This document shows positions 17,472 to 64,000 of a DNA stretch of 64,000 nt, one piece after another. A program made the translations under genes and the position numbers. A model generated the notes under the pieces. That model had not been told where the DNA came from. It saw nothing but the letters and a program-made list of their open reading frames with translations, and did no database searches. This DNA comes from an uncultured Chloroflexia bacterium (GTDB lineage Bacteria > Chloroflexota > Anaerolineae > CG2-30-64-16). Each line of letters begins with the position of its first letter. Within the stretch, counting starts at the first letter, position 1. The stretch covers positions 192,001-256,000 of the forward strand of contig CAWEMM010000009.1 of NCBI GenBank assembly GCA_963810095.1. The letters run 5' to 3'.

Positions 17472-17571
17472 GAAATGGGACACTGATGCCACTGATTGGC
17501 CTGATCCCCACGGTCCTTTGGGAAAAAGACCGTGATAATCAGTCCGATCCGTCGAATCAGTGTCCTATTTC
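17472..17571. repeat. REPIN/MITE-like inverted-repeat element, family A, copy 1
   Basis: GAAATGGGACACTGAT...ATCAGTGTCCTATTTC termini with CTGAT at 9-bp spacing; homologous copies at 30502 and 61387. Confidence 0.85.
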
Positions 17572-47252: not shown

Positions 47253-49493
47253 CTAGTTCGTCATCGTCGCATTGTTCATGATGACCGGCAGGAACATGCG
47301 CGACCCGCGCGTCGGGCTTGCCGTAGGCGTGGCTGTTTCGGTCGCCGTCGCCGTCGGGGTCGCCGTATGGGTCGGGGTGCTGGTCGGCGTATGGGTCGGC
47401 GTCGACGTCTCGGTCGCCGTGGGCGTAGCGGTCGGTGTAGGCGTGTCCTGCGGTTGGAACCGGATCAGCAGCCGCGCCGCCATCGCCGGATTGCTTTCGT
47501 AAGCCGCCCACGTCGCATAGTTTTGGGCGCCGGGAGCCGGGTCGACCAGCAGCGCCAGGTTATTGCCCGACTGCCAGTCCTGCCGGTCCAGAATTTCCTG
47601 CACAACCGACGTGAGGTCGGGAGAGTTCACCCATCCGCCCGCCCGGCTCGTGAGCGTCCAGCTTACCACGGACGAAGTGCGGGGCCGGTTGCTGATCTCG
47701 CGATAGCCGCCATAGAAGTCCTCCGCCTCGCCCCGGTCGTCGCCCGCCAGAACGAGCGGGACGGGCAGCCCACTCTGATACCGGGCATCGAGTTGCAGCG
47801 TGGCGGACATCACCCGGGCGCCGTGCGGGATCTCGATGTTCCGGAAGAGGAAGCCTCCGCTGTAGAGCGCGCCATCGGTGTTGCCGCCCGTCGTCACAGT
47901 GTCGAGCAGCGGGTAGACAACCCCGGTGTCGGTTCGCTCGTGCGCGTCGTCGTAGCAGTTGGCGATCTGCCGCTCGAGCAGCCCGGCCGCAGGTCCCGGC
48001 ACGCTTGACGTCGGATGCGGGGTGGCTGTGCCGAGGCAGGCCGCTCGCGTGGGGCTCGGGGTCGGCGTGACTTCAGGGGCGCCGGCATAGACGAAAACCG
48101 CGCCTGCGTCGATCCGCTCGACGGGATCAAAGCCCGGCGTCCCGATCGCGAGGTCTGCAAAGCCATCGTTGTTGAAGTCGGCCCCGGCGCCACTCTGGCC
48201 GTACAGGTCGCCGGCGGCCATTCCCGCCTGGCTCCATGCCGGCGGCGTAACGAGGCCGGTCGCCGAGCCGTAATAGAGCTCGGCAGCGCCGGCTTCGGAC
48301 CCGGTGGCGGGCGCCCCGATCAGAACGTCGTCGAAGCCGTCGCTGTTCGTGTCGCCTACGACGGCGATCGTCGCGCCGAAACCTGCCAGTGACGCGCCGC
48401 CATCCAGCGGTGTGCCCGTTGCCGGCAGCCCTCCGGATGCGCCCATGAAGTACGTAACCCGGCCCGTCTGACCGGACGGCCCGGTATACTGGGGGGCGCC
48501 GACAAAGACGTCGGCCAGGCCGTCGCCGTTGATGTCGCCTGCTGCGACCGCGGCCCCGCACTGCGCCTGGTCCTGGTCGCACTCGAAGGTCCAACCGGGC
48601 GTCGTCGCAACGCCGCCTGCGCCGCCGGCAAACAGGAATGCCGCGCCCTCGTTCGGCTGGCCGTTCGAGTACATGGGCGCGCCGGCGACCACGTCGGCTG
48701 CGCCGTCACCGTCGGTGTCACCAACTGCCACGCTCTGCCCGAAGCGCGCACCCGCCTGGTTGATCTCCAAGGTCGCCGCGCCGGACGTCGAGGGACCCGT
48801 GCCAGACCCGTAGTACACGAACACCGCGCCCTCGTCGACCTCGCCGTTATCCCAGCCGGGCGCGCCGACAACCAGATCGGAGAAGCCGTCGGCGTTTACG
48901 TCGCCACCTCCCAGGGCCAGGCCGAAGAGGCTGGACGGCTGCCCCGTGACCTCAAATGCAGGTGTCGGACTCAGGCCGGCCGCGGTCCCAAGATACACGT
49001 CAACCCGGCCGGCGTCGATATTGGCGCCGTCATCATAGTAGACGCCCGCGACGGCCACGTCTGCATAGCCGTCGCCGTTCACGTCGCCGATGCCGGCCAC
49101 GCTGAGCCCATACTGCTCGCCGCTCTGGGCGCCCGTGAGGGTCAGGGCGGGCGCGGGGGAGAGGCCCGTGGACGAGCCGTAGTAAATCTGTGCGCTGCCG
49201 GCGTCGGTCAGGGTGGGATCACCGACCAGGTCGGCGAGCGGCGCGCCGGCGATCAGATCGGCATAGCCGTCGCCGTTGATGTCGCCTGCGCTGGCCATGC
49301 TGCGCCCCAGCGCGTCGCCAGCCGAGCCGCCCTCCAGAACAACCGTGGGCGTAGTTACCGGGGCGGAAGGGGCCGCCACCCGTGGGGCCCGTGCCGTGCC
49401 GGCCTGCTGCGCCAGGCTGCTCGATGCCAGGGGCACGAGCAGTGCGAGCAGCAGCAAACCGGTGAAAAGGGGAGAGTACTTCTTCACTGACAT
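47253..49493 (-). CDS. Secreted FG-GAP (integrin-alpha-like propeller) protein with beta-sandwich domain, PT-rich linker and C-terminal FLPVI motif
   Basis: Signal peptide; seven GDxNGDGxADxxxGAP repeats; [31 protein letters not shown] domain; TPTAT repeats; ends [10 protein letters not shown]. Confidence 0.88.
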
Positions 49494-49708
49494 TGCCTGA
49501 CCTCCTCGAACTCTTCGATACGTCGTACAACGTCCCGCCTGAAGTACGGCATACGCGGCGGACAGTGGGCCGTGTATGCGCGCCATGTTAGCATATGGCA
49601 AGCGTATTTGAGAAAAGCACCGCGACGACGGCGCGCAACCGAATGCACCTGGAAGCGTACTATAGTAAGGAACGTTCAACTATCCCGCAGGTGACACGGA
49701 GGTTTCAC

Positions 49709-50077
49709 ATGAGCGAAAATTCGGCTCCTGATTTCAGGCGACATCGTCATAACGACGCCCCGCCCTGGGTGCTGGGCGGCGTCTTGATCGCAATCGGCGT
49801 CTTTTTGTTGCTCAGCAATGTTACCGGGCGGGGCACGGGCAATTGGTGGGCGCTCTTCATCCTGATCCCGGCCATTGGATCGCTTGCGACGGCTTGGCGA
49901 ATGTATCAGACCTCGGGCCAGATCACCGAGGTCGTTATTGGTCCCCTCGTCGGCGGCGTGATCCTGTTGTTTGTGTTCGCCATGTTGTTTTTCGGTTTCA
50001 ACTGGGGCTTGTTCTGGCCGGTGCTGTTGATCCTGGCGGGCGTCGGCGCGCTGATCGGAGTGTTCGCCCGCCGGTAA
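49709..50077 (+). CDS. Small membrane protein (LiaF/DUF5668-like)
   Basis: GGVLIAIGVFLLL..WWALFILIP..FWPVLLILAG; GGAGG SD. Confidence 0.75.
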   Translation: MSENSAPDFRRHRHNDAPPWVLGGVLIAIGVFLLLSNVTGRGTGNWWALFILIPAIGSLATAWRMYQTSGQITEVVIGPLVGGVILLFVFAMLFFGFNWGLFWPVLLILAGVGALIGVFARR

Positions 50078-50080
50078 GTT

Positions 50081-50188
50081 AAATGGAACGCTGATGACGT
50101 TCGTGCTCAGGATCCTCGCTGGTTTGCCCGGAATGGCTCCATGGCTCAGCGGTGACTATTGAGGGTGGACGTCATCAGCGTTCTGTTT
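50081..50188. repeat. Diverged family-A-like inverted repeat
   Basis: AAATGGAACGCTGATGACGT ... ACGTCATCAGCGTTCTGTTT between convergent genes. Confidence 0.65.
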
Positions 50189-50210
50189 TTTTGGCGGCAG
50201 TAGAGTGGTT

Positions 50211-50465
50211 TCAGGCGGCGCGCAACCCGTTGCGCCGCGCCAGCTTTGCAGCGTCCCTGCGGTTAGCCAGTTCCAGCTTCTCAAGAATGTGGAGCACGTG
50301 GTTGCGGACCGCCTGCTCGCTTACGTACAGGCGCTGCGCAATCTCCTCGTTCGACGCATCCACGGAAAGCTGTTGCATCACCTTCAATTCGGTGCGATTG
50401 AGCCGGTCCAATGGGTGCGCGTCCTCAGACAGCACGCGAAATGCGGTCAATCCTGGTGAATCCAT
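50211..50465 (-). CDS. Stand-alone LuxR/GerE-type HTH regulator
   Basis: LNRTELKVM..ASNEEIAQRLYVSEQAVRNHVLHILEKL; GGAGG SD before ATG 50465. Confidence 0.85.
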   Translation of the reverse strand: MDSPGLTAFRVLSEDAHPLDRLNRTELKVMQQLSVDASNEEIAQRLYVSEQAVRNHVLHILEKLELANRRDAAKLARRNGLRAA

Positions 50466-50825
50466 AGGTCTATCCTCCAAGGGAAAAGACGCCTTCACAT
50501 CATAAACTGATGGCGTCTCAGCGTCGTGCAGGAAGCGACGCGGCCAATCTACTCTACACCACTTCTAACGCAGCAACATCGGCGGGATTACGGGCAGAGC
50601 CCTACAACTTTTGTCCTATTTTCTCTCGAATTCCTGATCAGATTTCATACAACTTCCCCGCTACGCTGGTGTTAACGCTTCTGGTGCGCGCGACGGGTGC
50701 CGGTCCAAGGGGCGATTTGGCCGCTGACGAGGGCCGGTCTATACTGAAGTGTAGCTTTAGTTACACCTCGCTTCGTGTTCGCGCATTGCCGTTCGCACAA
50801 TTCCAGTCCGGAGGTTCCATCGCCC

Positions 50826-52466
50826 ATGCCTGGCCTCGATTCCGAAACTCTGCAAATGGTGCTGGCCACGCTTCAGAAATACGCCGACAAAAAGCTCCCC
50901 GAAAAGCTCCTGCTTGAACTGGATCACAACGATGAGTTCCCGCGCAAGGTTCTGAAAGAGCTCTATGACCCGCGGCATCTGGGTTTGCACCTGGTCTTCA
51001 TCCCGGAGTCGTTCGGCGGGTTGGGCGGCGGCGCATACGATATATACCGCGTCTCAGAAGTCATGGCGGCCGTCGACCTGGGGATTGCGACAGGCGTGCT
51101 TGCTACATTCCTGGGCAGCGACCCGATCACGGTGGGCGGCACCCCGGAACAGCAGGCCCACTGGATGGGCCGTATCGCGGAAGAGGGCCTGCTCGTCGCC
51201 TACGGCGCCACCGAACCCCAGGCCGGCAGCGACCTAGGGGCGCTGAAAACCCGCGCGGAGCCGGTCGCCGTGGACGGTACGGTGACGGGGTACAAGATCA
51301 CCGGACGCAAACAGTGGATCTCGAACGGCGGGGAAGCGGACGTCTACACCGTGCTCGCACTGGCCCCCGGCGGACCGACCTGGTTTATTCTCGAGCGCGG
51401 CGCAGAGGGGTTCACGCAGGGTAAGCCCGAGGACAAGCACGGCATCCGGGCGAGCAACACGGCGGCCCTCTTCCTCGAGGACGTTTTTGTCCCAATCGAC
51501 CGATTGGTCGGTGGGGTCGAAGGGCAGGGCCTCATCCAGGCGCAGGCGGTGTTCGGCTACACCCGGCTGATGGTGGCCGCGTTCGGCTTGGGTGCGGGCT
51601 GGGCCGCGCTGAAGCGCGCGATCCGCTACTCGCAGCAGCGGATCCAGGCCGGCGCCCCTCTCTCTCAGAAGCAGGGCTACACCCACAAGCTGATCGTCCC
51701 CAACGCGTGCCGGCTTGAAGCGGCCCGCTCGTATATCGAGTGGACCGCCGCCCGGATCGACGACGGCGCCGGCAATCTACAGACGGAGGGGGCGGTCGCC
51801 AAGTACGTTGCGACCGAGGGCGGCAACCGGGCGGCCGAAGACAGCATCCAGGCCATGGGCGGCTACGGCTACGCCAAGGAATACATGGTCGAGAAGATCA
51901 AGCGCGACGTCCGCATCACCACGATCTACGAAGGCACGTCCGAGATCATGGAATGGACCATCGCGCGCGACCGGTGGCAGGAACACCTCAAGACGCGGGG
52001 CGGCTACTATCTCGACTGGGCCACGCGGCTGGAAGCTGCACATGCACAGCACGCCGACACGGGTGCGGGAACCGCGGCCCTTGCCGTGCGAGCACTGGCG
52101 GTCGTGCTGGAACGGTGCCGCACGGAGCGACTGACGCGCAACCAACACGTCCTCTTCCGCCTCGGCGAGCTGATCGCCTGGGCGGAGACGGCTGCGGTGT
52201 TCAGCGAGCGCACGGCCGGGTATCCGACCGCAGCGATCAACCTATCGCCCGAGACCGAAAGGACGATGGCCCGCATCTATGCCCGCGAAGCCGCCTTGAA
52301 AGTCGCAGTCGACGGCCTCCGGATCGTCGCCGGCGCGCTGCCGGCGGCCGCAGCACCGGACCTGGCATCGCAGTTGGGCCTGCCGGCCATTTATGCCGGC
52401 CAGGCCGGCCTGCTCGAAGACATGGACGCGGTCGCGCTCAAGCTGAACGAGGCGTTCCCCGGCTGA
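50826..52466 (+). CDS. Acyl-CoA dehydrogenase with C-terminal helical extension
   Basis: [37 protein letters not shown] and IYEGTSEI (catalytic Glu kept). Confidence 0.93.
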
Positions 52467-52619
52467 GCCGGCGTGGCGCCTGGCGCGCGGTTCGACGATG
52501 AAGCATTTCGGGCACATAGCGTCAAGTGTTGCGTTGCGGCCGCGCCGCGGCCCCGGCGTTCCGACCAACCGGCGCCACAAGTTTTGATTCTACCCCTCTA
52601 TCGCTGGAGGAAAGCAGAC

Positions 52620-55600
52620 ATGGGTGACCCTGCAGAGAGGGCGGTCGCCATCGTCGGCCTCGGCGCGATGATGCCCGACGCCGGCGATGCGCGTGCCTTC
52701 TGGACCAACATCACGCAGAAGCGCTACAGCATCACCGAGGTGCCTCCTGAGCGGTGGCGCGTCTCCGACTATTATGACCCCGACCCCGCAGCGCCGGACA
52801 AGACTTATTCGAAAATCGGGGCATGGGTGCGCGGGTTCGAGTTCGATTGGAAGCAGCACCGGATTCCGCCCAAGGTCGCGGCTGCCATGGACGAGGGTCA
52901 GCAGTGGGCAGTTACCATCGCCGCGCAGGCTCTGACCGACTACGGGTATCCTAATCGCCCGCTGGACACCGACCGCACCGGCGTCATCCTTGGCAATGCG
53001 ATCGGCGGCGAGCAGCACTACATAACGACTCTTCGGGTCATGTCGCCCGAACTCGTGCGCCTGCTCGACGACGTCGAGTCCTTCCGTGCACTTCCGGAAG
53101 CCACTCGCCAACGCGTCCTGTCCGAATGGCGCCGGGCCATCGGGCAGGCATTTCCCGAGATCACCGAAGACACCATGCCGGGCGAGCTGCCCAACATCAT
53201 TGCGGGCCGTGTCGCCAACGTGCTTAACCTCCGCGGCCCCAGCTTCATCGCCGACGCAGCCTGCGCCTCGTCCTTCGCGGCGATCGCCTCCGCGGTCGAG
53301 TTGCTGGCCGAAGGCCGCTGCGATGCGGTGATAGCCGGAGGTGTCGATCGCAACATGGGACCGTCGACCTTCGTCAAGTTCTGCAAGATCGGCGCGCTGA
53401 GTGCGACCGGCACCCGGCCCTTTGGCGACGGCGCAGATGGCTTCGTGATGGGCGAGGGTGCGGGTGCGTTCCTCTTGAAACGGTTGTCCGACGCGGAAGC
53501 GGCCGGCGACACGATCTACGCGGTCATCCGCGGCATCGGCGCGTCCTCGGATGGTAAGGGGAAAGGCATTACCGCGCCCAACCCCGTGGGCCAGATGCTG
53601 GCCGCCCGCCGGGCGTGGGAGAATGCAGGCCTCGACCCCGCCACCGCAACGCTTCTCGAAGCACACGGCACGAGCACGCGCGTCGGCGACGTGACCGAGG
53701 TCGAGAGCCTCAGCCAGGTCTTCGGCCACGCTCCGAAGGGCGCGATCGCGCTCGGCTCGGTCAAGAGCAACATCGGGCATCTGAAGGCCGGCGCGGGCGC
53801 GGCTGGGCTTCTCAAGACCGTCTGGGCGATGCATGAGAAGCTGCTGCCGCCCACGCTCAATGCCCGGCCGTCCAATCCGAAGGTGGACTTCTCGCAGACC
53901 CCGTTCGAGCTCAATCACGAGCTCCGTGAATGGCCCGCCGCTGGCGGCCAAACCCGGCGGGCCGGGGTCAGCGCGTATGGCTTCGGCGGTACGAATTTTC
54001 ACCTGGTGCTTGAAGAGCACGTGCCGGGCATGCTGGCGGGCAATGGGCGAAAGGTGCACGCCGTCGCCGCGCCCGAACAGGTGCCGGCGCCGCGGATGGC
54101 CGCAGCGACTGAGCGGGCGCCGGTGCCAGCCGGTGCGCCTACCGGTTCAGAGCAACCCCTGCCCCGCGCTCCCCTCGCCCGCCCCGCGCCCCTCCAGGGC
54201 ATCCTGGCGCTCTCGGCAGATGATCCTCAGGCGCTCAGCGCGAAGGTGGAAGCGACGCTGGCACGGGTTGCGAACGGCTGGTGCCCGCCGCTCCAACTCC
54301 CCGCGGCGGCCGACGTGGCCGGTGCGGAGCGCCTGGTGATCGATTTTGCCGGCCGCCAGGAGCTCGAAGAGCGGCTCGTGAAGGCGCGGAAGGCCATTTC
54401 CCTCGGCACGCCGGCCGCCTGGAAGCCGCTGGCTTCCCAAGGGGTGTACCGGGGCAGCGGGCCGATGCCCGGCAAGATCGCATTCCTCTTCCCCGGGCAG
54501 GGCAGCCAGACGCTGAACATGGCGCGCAAGATCGCCGGCGTCGCACCCAGCGTGGCCGCGATGTTCTCAGAAGCGGACGGCATCATGCAGCCCATCCTCG
54601 GCCGGCCGCTGAGCAAGTTCGTCTGGGTCGACGCGACCGAGCCGGACGACGTCAAGCGGGCCGAGGACGAGCTTCGCCAAACGGCCATCACCCAGCCCGC
54701 GATGCTGACGGTCGACGCCGCGCTGCAGCGGCTGCTTGCGGATTACGGCTTCCGTCCCGACTACCTCATGGGTCACTCATTGGGCGAATACGCCGCGCTG
54801 GTGGCCTCGGGCGTCATGCCCTTCGCGCACGCACTGGAGGCCACTGCCGCCCGCGGCCAGGAGATGACGCGGGTCAGCGTGAACGATCCGGGTTGGATGG
54901 CCGCCGTCATCGGTCCCTATGAAAAAGTTGCTCAGGTGCTCAAGGAAATCGACGGCTACGTCGTCGCCGCCAACCTCAACAGCCACAACCAGACGGTGAT
55001 TGGCGGAGCAACCGAGGCAGTCAAGAAGGCGATCGAGCGATTCAATAAGTCCGGGCTCAAAGCGATGCGCATCCCGGTCAGCCACGCGTTTCACACGCAG
55101 ATCGTCGCCTCCGCTGCCCGACCGCTGCGCCAGGTGCTCGACCGGCTCAGTTTCAGCTCGCCCCAAATCCCGGTCATTGCCAACGTCACGGGCGAGTTGT
55201 ACCCCTCCGACCCGCAGCACGTCAAGGACTACCTGGAACGCCAGATTGCCTCGCCGGTACAGTGGGCCAAGGGGCTGGAAACGCTTTATGGCTTGGGCGT
55301 GCGCGTCTTCATGGAAGTGGGGCCCAAGAAGGTGCTGAAGGGGTTTGTGGACAACGTGCTGGCGGGCCGTCCCGACCTCGTCTCGCTTTTCACCAATCAC
55401 CCGGACTTCGGCGAGATTGCGATGTTCAACCAGGCGATCTGCGGCCTGTACGCGGCCGGCTATACGCCGTCCGAAGCCCCCGGCGTCGCGGTCCCCGTCG
55501 TCGCCCACGCTCCCGTTCCCGACCCGACGCTCTCGGCCCTCGGGAAAAATCCGGACAACGGTGCGGTGCGCCCGCTGTCCACACCCGTTCATACGGCGAC

Positions 55601-58600
55601 CCCGGCCGTCGCCAATTTCGAGGAATCTATGGCAGCCACCCCATCCTCCGAATCGCTTACCGCGCTCGCCCAGGTCCTGGCCCAGGCACTTCAGTCTGTA
55701 CCGGCCAACGCGCAAGCTGCGCCTCGTACGCCCGACCGTAACGACGTCCCGCTCGGCTCGGTCGTCATTTCCGGCGCCGGCCTCGGTTTGCCGGGCACGC
55801 GGCAAGCGCTTTATGGACCCCGACAATGCGCTGCGTATCCTGCGCGGCGAGCAGTTCATCGAGCTGTTGCCCGAGAGCGCGCGTGAAGCGATGGTGGGCA
55901 AGCGCATTACCCGGCTGGTGAAGGCCGAGGATGGCAGCGGCAGCTTCGAGACGATCGAAAACACGGCCGACGTGATCAAGTTGGCCGGGCAGCCGGGGCA
56001 GTTCGACCTGGCCGAGGAATTCGGCGTCCCAGAAAAGCTGGTCGAGGCACTGGACCTTGCGTCGCAGATCGCCATGGCCGCGGGCCTCGACGCTCTCCGT
56101 GAGTCAGGGATCCCGCTCGTGCAGACCTACAAGAAGACGAGCAAGGGCACCTATCTGCCGGATCGCTTCGTGCTGCCCCAGGCGCTGCGCGACGAGACCG
56201 GCGTGATCTTTGCGAGCGCCTTCCCCGGGCTCGATCGCTTTGCCGAGGAGTTGAAGCGCTATCACCGGTGGGAGGGCAAGGTCCAGCAGTTGGCGGCGCT
56301 GGAGGACTTGCGCGAGTACGCGGCGGCCGACGCCGGCGACGATGCGCTGCTGCGCGAGATCGACCGCCGCATCCATGCGCTGCGGGCCGACATGCAGCGC
56401 GACCCGTATACCTTTGACCGGCGCTTCCTCTTCCGCGTCCTGTCCATGGGACACAGCCAGTTCGCCGAGTTCATCGGCGCACGCGGCCCCAACACCCAGG
56501 TCAACGCCGCGTGCGCAAGCACGGCCCAGGCGGTCGCGTTGGCGGAAGACTGGATCAGGTCGGGTCGCTGCCGCCGCGTCCTCGTCATCGGGGGCGACGC
56601 GACCACCAGCGACAACATGCTCGAGTGGCTCGCGGCGGGCTTCCTGTCGGCGGGCGCGGCCGCGACCGATGACAGGGTGCAGGATGCAGCGCTGCCTTTC
56701 GACCGGCGGCGGCACGGCATGCTGACCGGGATCGGCTCCGTGGCGCTGGTCGTGGAGAGCGAGGACGCGGTGCGCGAGCGTGGGATGCGGGGCATCGCCG
56801 AGGTGCTGGCGACGGAGACGGCCAACAGTGCCTTCCACGGCACCCGCCTCGACGTCGAGCACATCACCCTCGTGATGGAGCGCCTCGTCAGCTCGGCCGA
56901 GCGCCGCTTTGGCATCAATCGCTATGCTGTCGCAGGGCAAACGGTCTTCATGTCGCACGAGACCTTCACGCCGGCCCGGGGCGGCAGCGCGGCCGCGGAG
57001 GTAATGGCCCTACGCAACTGCTTCGGCCCCGCGGCAGATGAGATCGTCGTCGCAAACACCAAGGGTTTCACCGGCCATACAATGGGCGCCGGCGTCGAGG
57101 ATGTGGTGGCGATCAAGGCCCTGGAACACGGCGTAGTGCCGCCTGTCCCCAACTTTAAGGAGCCCGATCCCGAGCTGGGCGCGCTGAACCTGAGCCGAGG
57201 GGGCCGCTATGGCGTCCAGTACGCCCTGCGCCTGGCCGCCGGCTTCGGGTCACAGATCAGCATGACCCTGTGCCGTCGCATTCCCGGCGGCCTTGACCGG
57301 GTCGACAACAAGCCGCGCTACGGGCGCTGGCTGGCCGACGTGAGCGGGTACGACCAGCCCGAACTGGAAGTCGTCCGGCGCACGCTGCGCATCAAGGGCG
57401 AGGGCGCGCCGCAACGCATGCCGGTGGGCAGCGCCTGGCAGTACGGCACCGGTCCAAGCGTGCGTGCGGCGGCCCCCGGCGACACCGGCGGCGCGTTCCG
57501 CCCCATGCCGATGGCGGCCGTAAGGCGAGTCATGGCTGCAGGCCAGGGGGCGCATGCGGTCGAGCTTCCGACAGTCCCGCACCCGGCGCCTGCCCAACCG
57601 GCGGCTCCGCCGAAGCAGGAGGAGCCGGCCCCGGCCGTCGAAGCCGTCCGCGTGGTCGCGCCGGATCTTGGCGCAGAGAACCGGGAGAAACCAGGTCTCT
57701 CCGAGAAACCCGGTTTCGTGCCCGCTGGGGCGGCGCCGGCTGATGCGGTGACGCCGCAGGTGTTGGCGATCGTCGCCGCGAAGACGGGTTACCCGCAGGA
57801 CATGCTCGACCTGGAGCTGGACCTGGAGGCGGACCTGGGCATCGACACGGTGAAGCAGGCGGAGACGCTCGCGGCGATTCGCGAGGCCTTCGGCATCCCG
57901 CTGCAGGAGAACCTGTCGCTGCGCGATTACCCGACGCTGCAAAGCGTGGTGGGGTTCGTCTATAAGTTCCGGCCCGACCTGGCCGCAGGCGAGTTGGAAC
58001 GCGAAGACGCTAAGGCGCCGGCAAGCGGGCGCAGCGAAGACGCGACGCACGAAGGCCGGCCGATAGAGGCGGTTTCGACCCCCGTTGGGCGCTCGGCGCC
58101 CGCTGTGGCAAAGGCGGCTGATGCGGTGACGCCGCAGGTGCTGGCAATCGTGGCCGACAAGACTGGGTATCCGCAGGACATGCTCGACCTGGAGCTGGAC
58201 CTGGAGGCGGACCTGGGCATCGACACGGTGAAGCAGGCGGAGACGCTCGCGGCGATCCGCGAGGCCTTCGGCATCCCGTTGCAGGAGAACCTGTCGCTGC
58301 GCGATTACCCGACGCTGCAGAGCGTGGTCGGCTTCGTGTACAAGTTCCGGCCGGACCTGGCGGCAGGAGAGCTGGAACGCGGAGACGCGAAGGCGCCGGC
58401 AAGCGGGCGCCGCGAAGATGCGAAGCACGAAGGTCGCGAAGGCCGGTCGATGGAAGTAGTCTCGGCCCCCGTTGAGCCCGCTGCGCCCGCTGTGGCAAAG
58501 CCGGCTGATGTGGTGACGCCGCAGGTGCTGGCGATTGTAGCGGACAAGACCGGCTACCCGCAGGACATGCTCGACCTGGAGCTGGACCTCGAGGCGGACC

Positions 58601-61376
58601 TGGGCATCGACACGGTGAAGCAGGCGGAGATGTTCGCGGTCGATTCGCGAGGCCTTTGGCATTCCGCTACAGGAGAACCTGTCGCTGCGCGATTACCCGA
58701 CGCTGCAAAGCGTGGTCGGCTTTGTGTACAAGTTCCGGCCGGACCTTGCTGCAAAAACCGCAGCGGGCGATGGGACCAGAGCTGAGCAGCCCTCGGTACC
58801 TCTCGTCCCCTCAGTCGCCCCTGATTCCTCTGTGGCAGAGACCGCGGGGCGGCGATATTCGATCGAGGACGCAAACCGGATTCCGCGTCGCGTGCCTGTT
58901 GCCAGCCTGCGGCCCGCGCTGAGCCTCTGCAAGCCAACCGGCGTGGAACTCCGCGCAGGTTCGCGGGTGGTCGTAATGGCCGACGAGGGTGGCGTGGGCA
59001 AAGCGCTGGAAGCGCGCTTGCGTAAGCTGGGCGTCACTGTCCTCGGGCTCGAACCCGGCATTCCGACGGCCGATCTCGAAGGCCGGCTCAAGGCGTGGCT
59101 GGCCGAGGGGCCGGTGCAGGGGGTCTACTGGCTGCCCGCACTCGACGTCGAACCTGGCCTCGATAAGCTTGATTTGGCGGGATGGCGGGAGGTGAACCGC
59201 CGCCGCGTGAAGAACCTGTATGCCGCCATGCGAGCGCTGTACGACTCGGTCGCCGGCTCGGGCGCATTCCTGGTCTCAGCGACCCGGCTCGGCGGCCTGC
59301 ACGGCTATGGGCCGGGCGGCGCGAGTGCACCTGCCGGCGGCGGCGTTTCGGGCTTCACGAAAGCCTACGCCATGGAGCAGGGGCTGCGCGAGGGCAAGCG
59401 GCTGACCGTGAAGGTCGTCGACTTCGAGCAGGGCGCCAAGCCCACCGACGCGGCCTCGATGCTGGTCGAAGAGACCTTATACGACCCCGGCGTGATCGAG
59501 GTCGGGCGGCACGGTAGCATGCGCTATTCGGTCACGCTGCAGGAGCGCCCCGCACAACACGGCGGCCCCGGCTTGCAACTGGGACCCGGCACCGTGTTTC
59601 TCGTTACCGGCGCGGCGGGCGGCATCACCAGCGAGATCGTGGCCGACCTCGCGGCTGCCAGCCAGGGCGTCTTCTACCTGCTGGACCTGGCAGCACTGCC
59701 CCCGCGGGACGACGGGCACGTGGCGGCTTTCCGCAAGGGGCGCGATGCGCTGAAGGCGGTGCTGATCGAAGAGGCGCGCAGCCGCAGCAACAAGCCCACC
59801 CCGGCAGCTATCGACAAGCAGATTGCCGCAACCGAGCGGTCCGAGGCGGCGCTGCGCGCAGTGGAAGCGGTCGAAGCGGCAGGCGGCACGGCGCACTATC
59901 ACAGCGTCGACCTTCGGGAGGCCGAGGCGTGTGCGGCCGTCATCTCCGACGTCCGGCAGCGCTACGGCCGGCTCGACGTGTTCGTCCATGCGGCCGGCTT
60001 GCTCGTGGACCGCACGCTGCCCAACAAGGAGCCCGCCCAGTTCGATCTCGTCTTCGATGTCAAGGCGGACGGTTGGTTCAATCTGATGTCGGCTGCCGCC
60101 GATCTGCCCATCTGCGCGGCGGTCGCATTCAGCTCCGTGGCGGGGCGGTTCGGCAACAACGGCCAGACGGACTACTCGGCCGCAAACGATCTCTTGTGCA
60201 AGCTGAGCAGCGGCCTGGCCCGCAGCCGGCCCGGGGCCCGGGGCATCGCCATCGACTGGACCGCGTGGGGTGGAATCGGCATGGCTTCCCGGGGTTCCGT
60301 GCCGCAGATCATGGAGGCGCTCGGCGTCGACATGCTCCCGCCTGAGTGCGGCGTGCCGACCGTGCGTCGGGAGCTGATCAGCGGGAACGCTGCGGGTGAG
60401 GTGGTGGTTGCGGGGCGGTTGGGCGCGTGGCTGGAAGAGCGCGACCCCAGCGGGGGGCTCGACGCCGAAAAGGCGGGCGCGTTCCTGGCAAGCCGCCAAC
60501 CGCGCCTGCCAATGGTGGAAAAGATCGTCGCGTGCAAGCTGTACGGCGGCGTGGAGATCGAGACGACGTTGGACCCGAGGGAGCAGCCCTTCCTTTTCGA
60601 CCATGCGCCCGACCCCGAGACGCCCTGGCTGCCCGGCGTGATGGCGACGGAAGCGTTGGCCGAGGCTGCAGTCGTGCTCGCGCCCGGGTATCACGTGGCC
60701 GCAGTCGAAAACGTGCAGATGCTCGGTGCGTTCAAGTTCTTCCGGATGGAGCCGCGCACGCTGTACCTCAGCGCGGTGGTCACGGCGGGCGGCGGTGGAG
60801 AGCTAGTGGCTCGGGCGACGCTGCGCTCGATCACCCGGCCGGCGAAAGACAACGTGCCGCCGCAGGTCAAGGAGCACTTCGTCGCCGACGTGCGGCTGCA
60901 GCGCAACGCACCCTCGGTCGACAAGGTGACGTTTGAGCCGCCCGCGAAATCCCTGCTCGACACGGGACGAGAGGAAATCTACAAGCTTTTCTTCCACGGC
61001 CCCGCTTACCAGGTGCTGGAATCCGCCGGGGTGCGGAAGGTAGAGGCGGTCGGCGTACTCCCCCGGCAGCTGCCGCCCGATCTCAGTCACAAAGAGCCGA
61101 ACGGCCATGCGATCCTGATGGCGCCCGCGGCTGATCGAGTCCATGTTCCAGGCGGCCGCGTTCTGGAACGTGCGGCAGAAGGGCGCAATGGCCTTCCCGC
61201 TCGGCGTCGGCTCGGTCACGACCTATCGCGACCCCGCCACGGCCAACGGCAAGCGGCTGTATGCCGTCGTAAGCACCTCAGACCAGGGGCAAACCTTCGA
61301 CGGCCGGGTGGTCGACGAAGAAGGCGAGGTGTACGTGGAACTGCGTGGCTACCGGACCGTGGCCCGGCCGGCCTAA
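52620..61376 (+). CDS. Iterative type I PKS/Pfa-like lipid synthase KS-AT-KS-ACP-ACP-ACP-KR-DH (about 2900 aa; frameshifts near 55800, 58640 and 61125)
   Basis: KS1 DAACASS/EAHGTST/NIGHLK; AT PGQGSQ/GHSLG/HAFH; KS2 [22 protein letters not shown]; three ACPs [14 protein letters not shown]; [16 protein letters not shown]; DH DHAP..WLPGV and FHGPAYQ. Rejoined from four ORFs. Confidence 0.88.
57740..58750 (+). repeat. Three near-identical ACP-coding repeats (about 245 nt) with repeat-derived linkers
   Basis: Units starting GCTGATGYGGTGACGCCGCAGGTG near 57740, 58118 and 58505. Confidence 0.92.
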
Positions 61377-61386
61377 GCAACCAAAC

Positions 61387-61589
61387 TGAAATGGGACACT
61401 GATACAACTGAGTGAACTGATCCACACTGACCTTTTGAACCTGTCGCCAGGCGAAAATGCTCTGGCCGGTCTCCGACCGAGCCAGGGGGCACGGTCAGAG
61501 ACCGGCCCCAGCCAACATTTTCACGCTGCGACTCGTTTGGTAAAGATCGTGATAATCAGTCGAATCCGTCCAATCAGTGTCCCATTTCA
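61387..61589. repeat. Family A element, copy 3, with a nested GGCCGGTCTC..GAGACCGGCC REP-like pair (61459-61511)
   Basis: Same two arms as copies 1 and 2 but about 100 nt longer; an extra lone arm at 61630-61668. Confidence 0.85.
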
Positions 61590-61667
61590 CCCCTCGTTGT
61601 CCAGCAGCGCAGGGCGAAGGTCTAAAACCGAAATGGCACGCTGATACAACTGATTGAACCGATCTGC

Positions 61668-61685
61668 TGGTACAATCCTCGTATG
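61668..61685 (+). promoter_or_regulatory. Extended -10 (TGgTACAAT) 6 nt before the PPTase ATG, probably leaderless
   Basis: TGGTACAAT at 61668-61676, ATG at 61683, no SD. Confidence 0.6.
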
Positions 61686-62396
61686 TATCCTTCACCCGAC
61701 CCGCGCATCTTCTGCCTGCTCCAGTCCACCTCCGCGCATCCCGGGCTCGCCGCCGCCGAGCCCCCGCCCGGTCTGCTTTCGGCGGCCGAGCAGGCCCGCT
61801 GCGAGAAGTTCGCGGTGCCAAAGCGCCGTCGTGACTGGCTGCTGGGACGCTGGACCGCCAAACACCTCGTCCGGGCATACCTTGCCGAAGCTCGAGATAG
61901 GCTAGTTCCGCTGGACGAGATCGAGGTTCTCGCCGGCGACGACGGCGCGCCCTACGTCCAGGTGGGCGAGCCGCTCCCGCTCAGTCTCTCCATCAGCCAC
62001 AGCGGAGTCGAGAGCTTCTGTGCGGTGTGCCGGGCAAAGGACGGGCACGTTGGTGCGGATATCGAGCAGGTCGAGCCGCGCGAAACCGGCTTGGTGCATA
62101 CCTTCTTCACCCCTGCCGAGATCGCAGTGGTCGACGCGGCCGTGGCCTCCGAGCGCGACGCGTACATTACCGCGATCTGGAGTGCGAAGGAAGCGGTGCT
62201 GAAGACGCTGCGCCTCGGCCTGCGCGCCGACACCCGGCAGGTCGAGGTCGCCATCTCACGGCTCAGCCCAGAGTGGCGTGCATTCTCCGTGGTCGTCGAC
62301 TCAAGGCTCCTTCCCTCGCCCGTGTCGGCTGTCGCCGGCTGGTCTCGCATCGATCCCCGCCGCGTCCTCTCACTCGCCATGCTCGCCCTCGGCTAA
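61683..62396 (+). CDS. Sfp-type 4'-phosphopantetheinyl transferase
   Basis: LSAAEQAR..KRRRDWLLGR, GAP, LSISHS, VGADIE and WSAKEAVLK. Confidence 0.93.
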   Translation: MYPSPDPRIFCLLQSTSAHPGLAAAEPPPGLLSAAEQARCEKFAVPKRRRDWLLGRWTAKHLVRAYLAEARDRLVPLDEIEVLAGDDGAPYVQVGEPLPLSLSISHSGVESFCAVCRAKDGHVGADIEQVEPRETGLVHTFFTPAEIAVVDAAVASERDAYITAIWSAKEAVLKTLRLGLRADTRQVEVAISRLSPEWRAFSVVVDSRLLPSPVSAVAGWSRIDPRRVLSLAMLALG

Positions 62397-62522
62397 CCCG
62401 GCCCCAATTCGCCCATCGCTCCCCGCCCGTTCCACCGGCCGGCTGCAGCATCATGTGCGTTTCCTCCCTGCCTTCGCGCCGCGGTTCCCCGTTTTGTTCC
62501 GAACGAGTTTTGAAACTCCTTC

Positions 62523-62577
62523 TACAAACCCCTTGACAACATTATACAAACATGATATATATGTCCAAGGTTTGTAT
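62523..62577 (+). promoter_or_regulatory. Promoter with operator-like repeats upstream of the ABC transporter
   Basis: TTGACA at 62533, TGA-TATATA 17 nt later; inverted pair ATACAAAC (62544)/GTTTGTAT (62570) and a third TACAAAC at 62523. Confidence 0.65.
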
Positions 62578-62617
62578 CGACAAGCAATCGTCGCAGCGCA
62601 AGTGGAGGAGCAAAGGC

Positions 62618-63772
62618 ATGGGTTTCTACCTCGCCCTGAAAGAAATCTGGCGCACCCGGGGGCGCTTCATCCTGTTCAGCATGGTCATCGCACTGATCAC
62701 GATGCTGGTTCTGTTCGTCGCCGCCCTCGCCGAGGGCTTGGGCTCGGGCAACCGGGAATACATCCAGAAGCTCAACGCGGACCTGATCGTCTACCAGTCG
62801 AAGACGGACCTGAGCGCCGGTGCAAGCCGGATCGGGACCTCCAAGCTCAACGAGATCCGCCGGGTGGACGGCGTTTCGGCCGTGGGGCCCATTGGCGTCG
62901 CCAGCGTGACCCTGACCCGAAACGGCGAGAAGGTGCTCAATGTGGCGCTGGTCGGCGTCGAGCCTGGCATGCCGGGCGAGCCGCCCGCGCTGCAGGGGCA
63001 GGGCCTGGGCAGCCGCCGGGCGCGTGAGGCGGTTTTGGACCGCAACGTGGCACTGCGGGCCAAGGTCGGCGTGGGCGACGTGATCACGATCAAGTCGATC
63101 CAGGGGACAAACGAGGAATATTACGACCTGAAGGTGGTCGGCATCAGCGACGGCCGCCAGTACAGCCTGCAGCCTTCGGTCATCGTACCCTTCCGCACCT
63201 GGGACGAACTCCGGCCCCAGCCCGCGAAGGGCGGCTCGGGCAACGCCGAACTGGTCGCCAACATCGTTGGCGTGCAGCTGGCGAACCCGCAGGACTGGGA
63301 GGCCATGGCGCAACGCATCCAGAACGAGGTGTCCGACGTGCAGGTGGTCGACCGGGTGACGGCGTACCAGGCGACGCCGGGCTACAGCGCCCAGCAGAGC
63401 ACGCTCGACACGCAGCGCTACTTTGCCCTGTTGATCGGCATCCTGGTCATCGGCGGCTTCTTCCAGATCCTGACGCTGCAGAAGGTAGCGCAGATCGGCA
63501 TGCTGAAGGCCATCGGCGCCTCCAACCGGGTGGTCGGCACTGCGGCGATCATCCAGATCATTGCGGTCACGGTCATGGGTGTGGCCCTGGGCGCGGCCTT
63601 CTCGCTGGCCCTGTCGCTCGGCTTTCCGCCCACTGTGCCGATCATCTTCTCGCCCGCGGCGGTCTCTGCAGCTGTGCTCTCGCTGCTCCTGATCGGCCCC
63701 ATCGGCGGCCTGGTCTCGGTTCGCTACTCGCTGAAGGTCGAGCCGCTCACGGCTCTGGGCCTCGCGCAATGA
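62618..63772 (+). CDS. ABC transporter permease (FtsX/MacB/HrtB-like)
   Basis: LALKEIW..RF..TM, extracellular domain, QKVAQIGMLKAIGAS, C-terminal TMs and VEPLTALG. Confidence 0.9.
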   Translation: MGFYLALKEIWRTRGRFILFSMVIALITMLVLFVAALAEGLGSGNREYIQKLNADLIVYQSKTDLSAGASRIGTSKLNEIRRVDGVSAVGPIGVASVTLTRNGEKVLNVALVGVEPGMPGEPPALQGQGLGSRRAREAVLDRNVALRAKVGVGDVITIKSIQGTNEEYYDLKVVGISDGRQYSLQPSVIVPFRTWDELRPQPAKGGSGNAELVANIVGVQLANPQDWEAMAQRIQNEVSDVQVVDRVTAYQATPGYSAQQSTLDTQRYFALLIGILVIGGFFQILTLQKVAQIGMLKAIGASNRVVGTAAIIQIIAVTVMGVALGAAFSLALSLGFPPTVPIIFSPAAVSAAVLSLLLIGPIGGLVSVRYSLKVEPLTALGLAQ

Positions 63773-63889
63773 CATCGGAATTGGATGCAGATTGAACGGG
63801 TGGAGCGGATTCCGAAGGTTTATCTGAGACAACTCAACGCCGGTCAATGAGTCCGATCGGCGTCCCAGTGGGGAATTGTGGAGTAAAGA

Positions 63890-64000
63890 ATGTTTGCACT
63901 CGAGACGCGTGATGTGTTGAAGGCTTATGGGTCTGGGACCTCGGTGACCAGGGCCGTGGACGGAGTGTCGATTGGCGTGCGCAGCGGTGAGTTCGTGGCA
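63890..64000 (+). CDS. ABC transporter ATP-binding protein (LolD/MacB-like), 5' part only
   Basis: MFALETRDVLKAYGSGTSVTRAVDGVSIGVRSGEFVA after GGAG SD; truncated by the window end. Confidence 0.85.
   Translation, partial: MFALETRDVLKAYGSGTSVTRAVDGVSIGVRSGEFVA

Follow-up and report, generated by a model that had tools for sequence, protein, structure and literature searches.

The 64,000-nucleotide stretch of DNA analysed here (the window; positions 192,001 to 256,000 of contig CAWEMM010000009.1 in assembly GCA_963810095.1, from an uncultured Chloroflexia bacterium) carries a lipid synthase locus in which three genes follow one another on the plus strand, namely a very-long-chain acyl-CoA dehydrogenase (VLCAD)-like acyl-CoA dehydrogenase (ACAD), a megasynthase and an Sfp-type 4'-phosphopantetheinyl transferase (PPTase). 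Judged by its sequence, the locus is ordinary and intact and belongs to the Type R secondary lipid synthases, a family that is catalogued, which makes the locus not unprecedented, and whose product is not characterised. We propose that it encodes a self-contained iterative fatty-acid-type synthase, where the enoyl reduction absent from the synthase itself would come from the ACAD and where acyl carrier proteins (ACPs) with threonine at the attachment site would be loaded by the linked PPTase, and on the whole we regard this proposal as probable.

As we picture it, the synthesis would be iterative, malonyl-fed and of the fatty-acid type. The acyltransferase (AT) would put malonyl units on the tandem carriers, and two ketosynthases, KS1 (type I/Pfa-like) and KS2 (FabF-derived), would share the condensations, probably split by chain length; we suggest this division by analogy with polyunsaturated fatty acid (PUFA) synthases, in which two ketosynthases divide the cycles in such a manner. 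Ketoreductase (KR) and dehydratase (DH) would then bring the chain to a trans-2-enoyl thioester, and the ACAD, working in the reductive direction, would reduce it in trans with electrons from an electron transfer flavoprotein (ETF), whose genes in Acidobacteriota lie close by, along with that of an Fe-S ETF:quinone-type oxidoreductase. The linked PPTase would be required for loading of the Thr carriers, which would make the system orthogonal to the AcpS/AcpP machinery, and the product would probably be a long, largely saturated acyl chain. The complete combination, with phosphopantetheine on Thr of the tandem carriers installed only by the co-encoded PPTase, and with trans enoyl reduction by an ETF-driven VLCAD-like ACAD (in Acidobacteriota from menaquinol via the dedicated Fe-S oxidoreductase) inside one self-contained, orthogonal type I fatty-acid synthase, is a tentative idea to which we would give somewhat less than an even chance.

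Architecture of the locus and its place in the Type R family

The Type R cluster was catalogued by Shulse and Allen (2011) as one pfaA homologue with the layout KS-MAT-CLF-ACP(3-6)-KR and a PPTase gene downstream, held by Roseiflexus, Ca. Koribacter, Ca. Solibacter and Elusimicrobium, with an acetyl-CoA carboxylase (ACC) gene in Koribacter and with a product uncharacterised at that time; the accessible part of this text (PMC3098273) contains no occurrence of the words dehydrogenase, serine or threonine and leaves DH, ACAD and Thr carriers unmentioned. In the window the Pfam order is KS, AT, KS, three PP-binding domains, KR and DH, intact orthologues have 3-6 ACPs, and the PPTase gene (61683..62396, plus strand) lies downstream, as it does in 46 of 47 related loci, the exception being a second synthase copy in one relative (G012). 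The PfaA profile TIGR02813 gives 1247.4 bits against a cut-off of 1010.1, scored on an intact orthologue (L011) and not on the broken pieces of the window. Roseiflexus-labelled proteins (P0030, P0044) have a KS2 73% identical to that of the window, a Roseiflexus locus has the same gene order, and Roseiflexus and Acidobacteriota loci (L066, L073-L095) have the same genes as the window, the comparison being with these loci and not with the type strains themselves.

The family is large and patchy. A search with the KS2 region found 3545 proteins at E <=1e-10 among 8000 candidates scored, the best 120 being 64-78% identical and labelled, among others, as Anaerolineae, Promineifilum, Caldilineales, Kouleothrix and Roseiflexus. 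When one genome was scanned for each species, 551 of 598 candidate stretches were confirmed, so that at least 551 species genomes hold the synthase; among 41 relatives it is held by 8. By record title, the best 80 loci comprise 53 from Chloroflexota lineages, 22 from Acidobacteriota lineages and one each from Myxococcota, Binatia, Deferribacteres, a delta proteobacterium and Acidithiobacillales. Our literature search, with subscription journals mostly outside its coverage, found no description of the domain string beyond the 2011 catalogue. An earlier first-pass annotation of this DNA would have given up its view of the locus as unusual if the architecture matched a characterised synthase class; this has come true only by half, because Type R is catalogued but not characterised.

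The ACAD gene (50826..52466, plus strand, 546 aa) starts at ATG 50826 behind a GGAGG ribosome site and stops at 52466. The megasynthase (52620..61376, plus strand) is read by us as one gene with the layout KS1-AT-KS2-ACP3-KR-DH, likely starting at ATG 52620, also with a GGAGG site, with its true stop at 61374-61376 and a reconstructed length of about 2,900 aa. As deposited it occupies three frames, 52473-55886, 55345-58785 and 58712-61402, in which Pfam places KS and AT in the first, a divergent KS and PP-binding domains in the second, and KR with a PKS-type DH in the third. KS1 (52638..54024, plus strand) has the Cys-His-His set and is closest in the PDB to KS domains of type I polyketide synthases (PKSs; 7zma, 7.5e-148), with a match at 2.8e-67 to 6riw, which we take to be the PfaC KS-CLF of Moritella. 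The AT (54483..55340, plus strand) has GHSLGE and HAFH, motifs present in 43/43 and 42/43 full-length family proteins, respectively. They are followed by KS2 and the ACPs, discussed below, then by the KR with its structural pre-domain (58898..60271, plus strand) and by the PKS-type double-hotdog DH (60545..61373, plus strand). All catalytic motifs of the synthase are present.

These parts agree well with the first-pass annotation, which had named the ACAD, the synthase and the PPTase: Pfam and the open reading frames place all of them on the plus strand just where it had put them, with the malonyl-type HAFH of the AT and with the catalytic Cys and both His in KS1 and KS2 alike. What it had reported as missing is missing in our hands as well. 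By Pfam, neither the window nor the intact orthologues have an enoyl reductase (ER) or a thioesterase domain, and a PfaD-type ER (TIGR02814) was not found in the source genome (16 contigs, 88.5% complete). The genes pfaB, pfaC and pfaD occur neither at this locus nor at 80 related ones, pfaB and pfaC having been sought at the loci and not genome-wide.

The acyl-CoA dehydrogenase partner

The ACAD has the N-terminal, middle and C-terminal domains of its superfamily (PF02771, PF02770, PF00441), and its catalytic Glu is kept (IYEGT), the Glu of YEGT being invariant in 64/64 cases. It consists of a core resembling medium-chain acyl-CoA dehydrogenase (MCAD, its best PDB match, 8.7e-60) and of a helical C-terminal domain of about 160 residues. 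At the positions of Gln95 and Glu99, presumably the cavity-floor residues of MCAD, this protein has Ala and Leu. For the structural model (pLDDT 88.7), the alignment with 2z1q and 3owa covers residues 21-562 and that with human VLCAD residues 22-529, and in comparisons with VLCAD/ACAD9-type folds 483-510 residues are aligned with Z of 34.5-37.3, rmsd of 2.8-3.2 and 25-27% identity. The C-terminal 163 residues match no Pfam or NCBIfam family and are placed by fold comparison only, with an ESM Atlas lead to PF21263 and PF21343 at 0.90; in the model this extension shows as a VLCAD/ACAD9-type helical domain, and we count the predicted two-domain fold as support for long-chain substrates. The top NCBIfam match of the whole protein is AcrC (NF042972), at 224.6 bits and under its cut-off of 640.

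Among the best 80 loci, 64 have enough upstream DNA for looking at the gene before the synthase, and in all 64 this gene is the ACAD, on the same strand in 63 by the rule of our script and adjacent with a small overlap in the remaining one (L083). The C-terminal 163 residues are found in exactly the 8 of 8 relatives that hold the synthase, with each copy beside it, versus 0 of 33 others. Across phyla the ACAD is 58-77% identical, compared with 52-67% for KS1-AT and 45-66% for KR-DH (query from 58898, 60 loci). Such a pattern of order, co-occurrence and conservation supports a functional tie between the ACAD and the synthase. It also answers the first-pass annotation, which was prepared to drop its proposal if the ACAD was not syntenic in relatives. 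Its suggestion that the ACAD serves as a trans enoyl reductase is thus strengthened in one half, the tie to the synthase, while the reductive role itself is something that we infer.

Upstream of the ACAD, EtfB and EtfA genes are present in 23 of the 80 loci, in 17 of them together with a CCG/4Fe-4S protein, and the genome of the window has two ETF alpha genes elsewhere. One acidobacterial locus was annotated in full and reads Fe-S protein (CCG and 4Fe-4S), EtfB, EtfA, ACAD, synthase, multidomain ACC and PPTase. We note that the CCG/4Fe-4S oxidoreductase, EtfB and EtfA stand ahead of the ACAD in Acidobacteriota loci L073-L095 (for example, L075 1107-22122).

We predicted the ACAD jointly with an ACP and obtained an ipSAE of 0.33 (runs 0.36, 0.33, 0.32), the best of three controls giving 0.00; at least 95% of contacts are common to the runs, and pLDDT of the partners is at least 82. 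The mark of 0.33 is reached by 116 of 157 solved complexes and by 2 of 215 mismatched pairs, counts that hold roughly for a prediction with its own alignments and an FAD riding along, and values from this mark up to 0.60 belong to only 18 of the 157 solved complexes and to both mismatches. The prediction gives weak support to a carrier-tethered substrate.

Since KR and DH already yield the 2-enoyl thioester and the ER is missing, a reductase would complete the cycle, and a 2,3-dehydrogenase would be redundant. ACADs working as reductases have precedents among the closest relatives of this protein, such as the butyryl-CoA dehydrogenase/Etf complex, caffeyl-CoA reductase and acryloyl-CoA reductase, and with menaquinol as donor enoyl reduction is thermodynamically feasible by the familiar potentials. 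We see the ACAD acting as enoyl reductase as the most economical reading, with the balance even or tilted slightly in its favour.

It may be argued, and this is the most serious alternative, that the ACAD works oxidatively, setting or shifting a double bond, be it on the starter, on an intermediate or on the completed chain, with electrons going to ETF and the quinone pool, so that the ER-less synthase makes a polyene or a hydroxy/enoyl chain. The Fe-S/EtfBA/ACAD order of the 17 acidobacterial loci is that of a standard oxidative chain, ER-less KS-AT-ACP-KR-DH synthases such as the enediyne PKSE do make polyenes, and ACAD-fold dehydrogenases acting on carrier-tethered substrates (by title, ColB1, 7xp7, and a prolyl-ACP dehydrogenase, 4irn) are among the structure matches. 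Nevertheless, with a 2-enoyl thioester delivered in each cycle by KR and DH, a 2,3-dehydrogenase adds nothing obvious, and the ACAD is conserved as strictly as a core catalytic domain. The dedicated carboxylase genes point in the same direction, suggesting that malonyl units are needed in quantities typical of bulk lipid synthesis: 26 of 47 loci continue with a carboxyltransferase, along with a biotin carboxylase (usual in Chloroflexota loci), and in Acidobacteriota a eukaryote-like multidomain ACC, of about 1860 aa in 18 loci, is located between synthase and PPTase. We consider oxidation unlikely, though by no means negligible. The same literature search gave no publication in which a PUFA-type synthase is paired with an ACAD or ETF.

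Threonine carriers and the linked phosphopantetheinyl transferase

Nothing else in the family is as surprising as its Thr carriers. All three ACPs of the window, ACP1 (57724..57987), ACP2 (58102..58365) and ACP3 (58489..58753), on the plus strand, have Thr at the phosphopantetheine position (GIDTVKQ in ACP1), within the family motif DLEADLG(I/V)D-T-VKQAE. The same residue occurs in 261/261 strict-motif ACPs of 85 loci; a looser motif, found in 84 of the 85, returns 263 Thr, 3 Ala, 1 Gly and no Ser. Thr is likewise found in all 408 ACPs of 120 database proteins, which may overlap with the loci. In HMMER alignments to carriers of the PDB the family Thr occupies the column in which PigH, CurA and type II ACPs have their attachment Ser, and the canonical Ser pattern of PF00550, (D/H)S(L/I), is absent from the family ACPs. 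Other carriers of the same genome with a readable attachment motif, namely those of non-ribosomal peptide synthetases (NRPSs) and PKSs and AcpP, all have Ser, and Thr is met only in the two Type R synthases. The helix-II recognition motif around the Thr is invariant, and the tandem copies number from 1 to 6 per synthase; in PUFA synthases the ACP copy number sets throughput.

The PPTase consists of two domains (PF01648, ACPS, and PF17837, 4PPT_N), and its stretches ISHSG, GADIE and WSAKEAVLK align with the Sfp motifs. It is one of three in the genome, beside an NRPS-linked enzyme and AcpS, and orthologues with at least 45% identity are encoded by all 8 synthase-bearing relatives and by one more (G016). 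The genome also has a large NRPS/PKS cluster at G000:C11 ~78000-144000, with at least 15 Ser-type carriers and its own Sfp-type PPTase (C11:143717). We infer that the linked PPTase loads the Thr carriers, and such loading would account both for the PPTase never being lost and for insulation from the housekeeping enzymes.

According to another explanation no phosphopantetheine is ever attached to the Thr carriers; the ACP-like domains in tandem would have a structural or regulatory role, and catalysis would proceed on free AcpP or CoA esters. KS2 is FabF-like, and FabF uses free AcpP; the literature search returned nothing on Thr-linked phosphopantetheine; and the S36T form of E. coli ACP, in the words of the accessible part of PMC3340395, "cannot be post-translationally modified". 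Against this stand the Sfp-type PPTase, linked in 46 of 47 loci and intact in its catalytic motifs, the invariance of the helix-II motif round the Thr and the retention of ACPs in 1-6 tandem copies, as in PUFA synthases. It seems to us rather improbable that these carriers stay empty.

Second ketosynthase, reading frames and relation to known systems

KS2 (55735..57280, plus strand) retains Cys258, His406, Lys441 and His446 in 71/71 sequences, with the second His in NTKGxTGH, and this Cys-His-Lys-His set aligns with the FabF residues. The model of an orthologue (G031; pLDDT 85.7) superimposes on FabF 4jpf with Z 39.8 and rmsd 2.2 over 402 of 411 residues, and all 50 fold matches listed for it are FabF-type or type II ketosynthases. 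Kinship was judged by E-values and fold ranks: KS2 matches free FabF genes at 1e-20 to 1e-37 and its own KS1 at about 1e-4 to 1e-7, whereas the FabF profile covers only positions 136-403, at 138 bits against a cut-off of 494. The divergence and the long insertion seen by the first-pass annotation are confirmed, the insertion of about 55 residues forming in the model a two-helix hairpin (helices 168-197 and 201-220) outside the FabF core. In the model KS2 is a complete FabF-fold ketosynthase and looks like a recruited FabF. The fold and the Cys-His-His(+Lys) set therefore point to decarboxylative elongation.

A chain-length factor (CLF) lacks the active-site Cys. KS2 as a CLF was considered and rejected because this Cys is kept in all 71 sequences, aligned with that of FabF, and by sequence the CLF label given to the second domain in the 2011 catalogue does not fit.

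The first-pass annotation had offered KS2 as a terminal condenser, joining two long chains head-to-head in the manner of OleA or Pks13 into diols, alkenes or wax-type lipids. The location of a second KS after the AT is indeed unusual, and acyl-CoA carboxylase-type carboxyltransferase and biotin carboxylase genes stand 3' of the PPTase in many Chloroflexota loci. In principle such enzymes could make long-chain carboxyacyl extenders, as for Pks13, and alkane-1,2-diol lipids are made by Roseiflexus, which has a Type R synthase. However, KS2 has the FabF fold with the invariant Cys-His-His and Lys of malonyl-decarboxylating elongases, a set different from the non-decarboxylative site of OleA, an enzyme of FabH/thiolase-like architecture; here the comparison rests on the 50 FabF-type or type II matches and the retained His-His-Lys, OleA itself being outside the structures compared. 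HAFH, the malonyl-type motif, is found in the AT of 42 of 43 proteins, and the ACC of acidobacterial loci contains ACC_central, a Pfam domain named for acetyl-CoA carboxylases. We regard the idea as a decidedly improbable one, with even less in its favour than that of empty carriers.

The locus looks broken, according to our reading, because the long-read consensus holds three one-base insertions: at 55801 in the first strand of KS2, within 58639-58642 in ACP3, and in the CCC run 61124-61126 inside the DH. At the first junction the KS2 strand GLGLPGT resumes as GKRFMDPDN in the next frame, and an orthologue reads through uninterrupted; at the second, ACP3 is cut in mid-helix, and the half of it after the cut does not differ from ACP1 and ACP2 in protein sequence; at the third, an extra C is present. 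In the relatives G031 and G012 the domains follow in the same order within uninterrupted single frames (3175 and 3028 aa, respectively), and therefore the breaks are not gene boundaries. Contigs from 4 of 4 public runs (2 studies), compared over 55300-59000, lack one letter at 55801, with 0-1 other differences over about 200 bases, one of the samples being possibly the source of the assembly itself; shares in the public runs reached 0.22 at best, and no habitat conclusion is drawn. Two further genes of this assembly, that of a paralogous synthase (contig C7) and that of AcpS, are also spread over several frames. The AcpS-type PPTase gene (G000:C7:16331-16652) lies in two frames, a further sign of indel errors in the assembly. 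All three breaks are thus read as consensus errors and the synthase as one gene, so that indels had been guessed correctly by the first-pass annotation and their number had not, the break in the DH being one more than it implied. We find it hardly credible that the frame breaks exist in the organism and that the synthase is a pseudogene in decay or several split genes: the deposited sequence does read in three frames and the run contigs cover the first site alone, yet those contigs contradict the break there in 4 of 4 runs, the catalytic motifs are all intact, the ACP3 halves flanking the second site match ACP1 and ACP2 exactly, the third site is a homopolymer-length error, and the C7 paralogue and AcpS gene are likewise split.

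Several observations weigh against the proposed iterative synthase with its reductive ACAD and loaded Thr carriers. ETF genes are absent from the surroundings of the ACAD in most Chloroflexota loci, that of the window among them; the usual direction of ACAD-ETF-quinone chains is oxidative; and the joint prediction of ACAD with ACP is weak. We know of no demonstration of Thr-linked phosphopantetheine, and the literature search was empty both on this subject and on any Type R product. A 97%-complete relative encodes a PPTase 47% identical to that of the window, with a two-component system adjoining and no synthase (G016:C4:45462-46154; L124 9427-10185), and the C7 paralogue has neither ACAD nor PPTase adjacent. 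Among the 80 neighbourhoods there is no conserved thioesterase, acyltransferase or reductase gene, and no release enzyme is evident. As to the integrity of the gene, the near-identical public contigs bear on the first site; none crosses 58639-58642, and 61124-61126 is outside the compared stretch.

If the proposal is correct, its meaning goes beyond one genome, as the synthase is present in no fewer than 551 species genomes of bacteria abundant in soil, sediment and wastewater (Chloroflexota, Acidobacteriota and others). To the 2011 catalogue our analysis adds an obligatory VLCAD-like ACAD partner, a FabF-type KS2 in place of a CLF and Thr at every carrier site. Should the ACAD be a reductase, it would represent a new way to close the fatty-acid cycle, tying lipid synthesis to the ETF/quinone pool, and a flavin/ETF-dependent class of enoyl-ACP reductases unrelated to FabI, FabK, FabL, FabV and PfaD. 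Loaded Thr carriers would be an exception to the rule of phosphopantetheine on serine and the first natural Thr-linked carrier arm; motif-based tools for genome mining would need adjusting, and the PPTase-carrier pair could be explored as an orthogonal tagging system.

The paralogous synthase mentioned above, KS-AT-KS2-ACP2-KR-DH with Thr carriers, is located at G000:C7 ~176000-184500 (L013 8044-16487) and has a counterpart at G007:C58 (L015); a NUDIX-domain protein is encoded directly upstream of it in both genomes, and the G000 copy lies in at least five frames. Genes flanking the locus are unrelated to it and encode an FG-GAP repeat protein on the opposite strand (808 aa, 47253-49679, minus), a LiaF-like membrane protein and a MacB/FtsX-type permease (62552-63772, plus), of which the FG-GAP protein and the permease are not conserved beside the synthase in relatives. 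The spacer between synthase and PPTase contains three copies of a dispersed repeat, GAAATGGGACACTGAT...ACTGA (61388-61411 plus, 61565-61588 minus and 61630-61653 plus), which has 79 copies in the genome versus 0 for its reversed control. The copies, also found in the window at 17472, 30503 and 30577, are often arranged in inverted pairs about 75 bases apart, and the repeat looks like a REP/MITE-type element. An Rfam scan of 49500-64000 (E up to 0.1) gave no match, the repeat included.

With the Type R clusters of PMC3098273, as its accessible text presents them, the locus shares the pfaA homologue, the second KS-like domain, ACP(3-6), KR, the downstream PPTase and in some cases ACC, and no difference at the level of the locus was seen. 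Other systems resemble it in part. VLCAD/ACAD9-type enzymes (2uxw, 7s7g, 3b96; bacterial 2z1q and 3owa) have the same core with an extra C-terminal helical domain and the catalytic Glu, but the ACAD of the window is fixed beside a synthase and not placed in beta-oxidation. The ETF-dependent reductases of this fold (5ol2, CarC 6fah, AcrC) are among its closest relatives by sequence or fold, and 23 of 80 loci have neighbouring ETF genes; these reductases act, however, on short CoA esters in fermenters, whereas our protein has the VLCAD-type extra domain and a synthase as partner. In its entire fold and its catalytic residues KS2 agrees with FabF and type II PKS ketosynthases, and it differs from FabF in being embedded in a type I chain, in its two-helix insertion of about 55 residues and in a divergent N-terminal half. 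With a CLF (KS-beta) it has in common the position beside a KS and the label of 2011, and it is unlike a CLF in keeping Cys, both His and Lys. The canonical PfaABCDE system of marine Gammaproteobacteria offers the same backbone of KS-AT-tandem ACP-KR-DH, a linked Sfp-type PPTase and iterative action. Unlike it, the window locus is without PfaB, PfaC (a KS-CLF and FabA-type DH pair) and the ER PfaD, the first two having been sought at the loci and not genome-wide, and the Type R synthase has instead a FabF-type KS inserted into its chain, an ACAD for a partner and Thr, not Ser, on its carriers.

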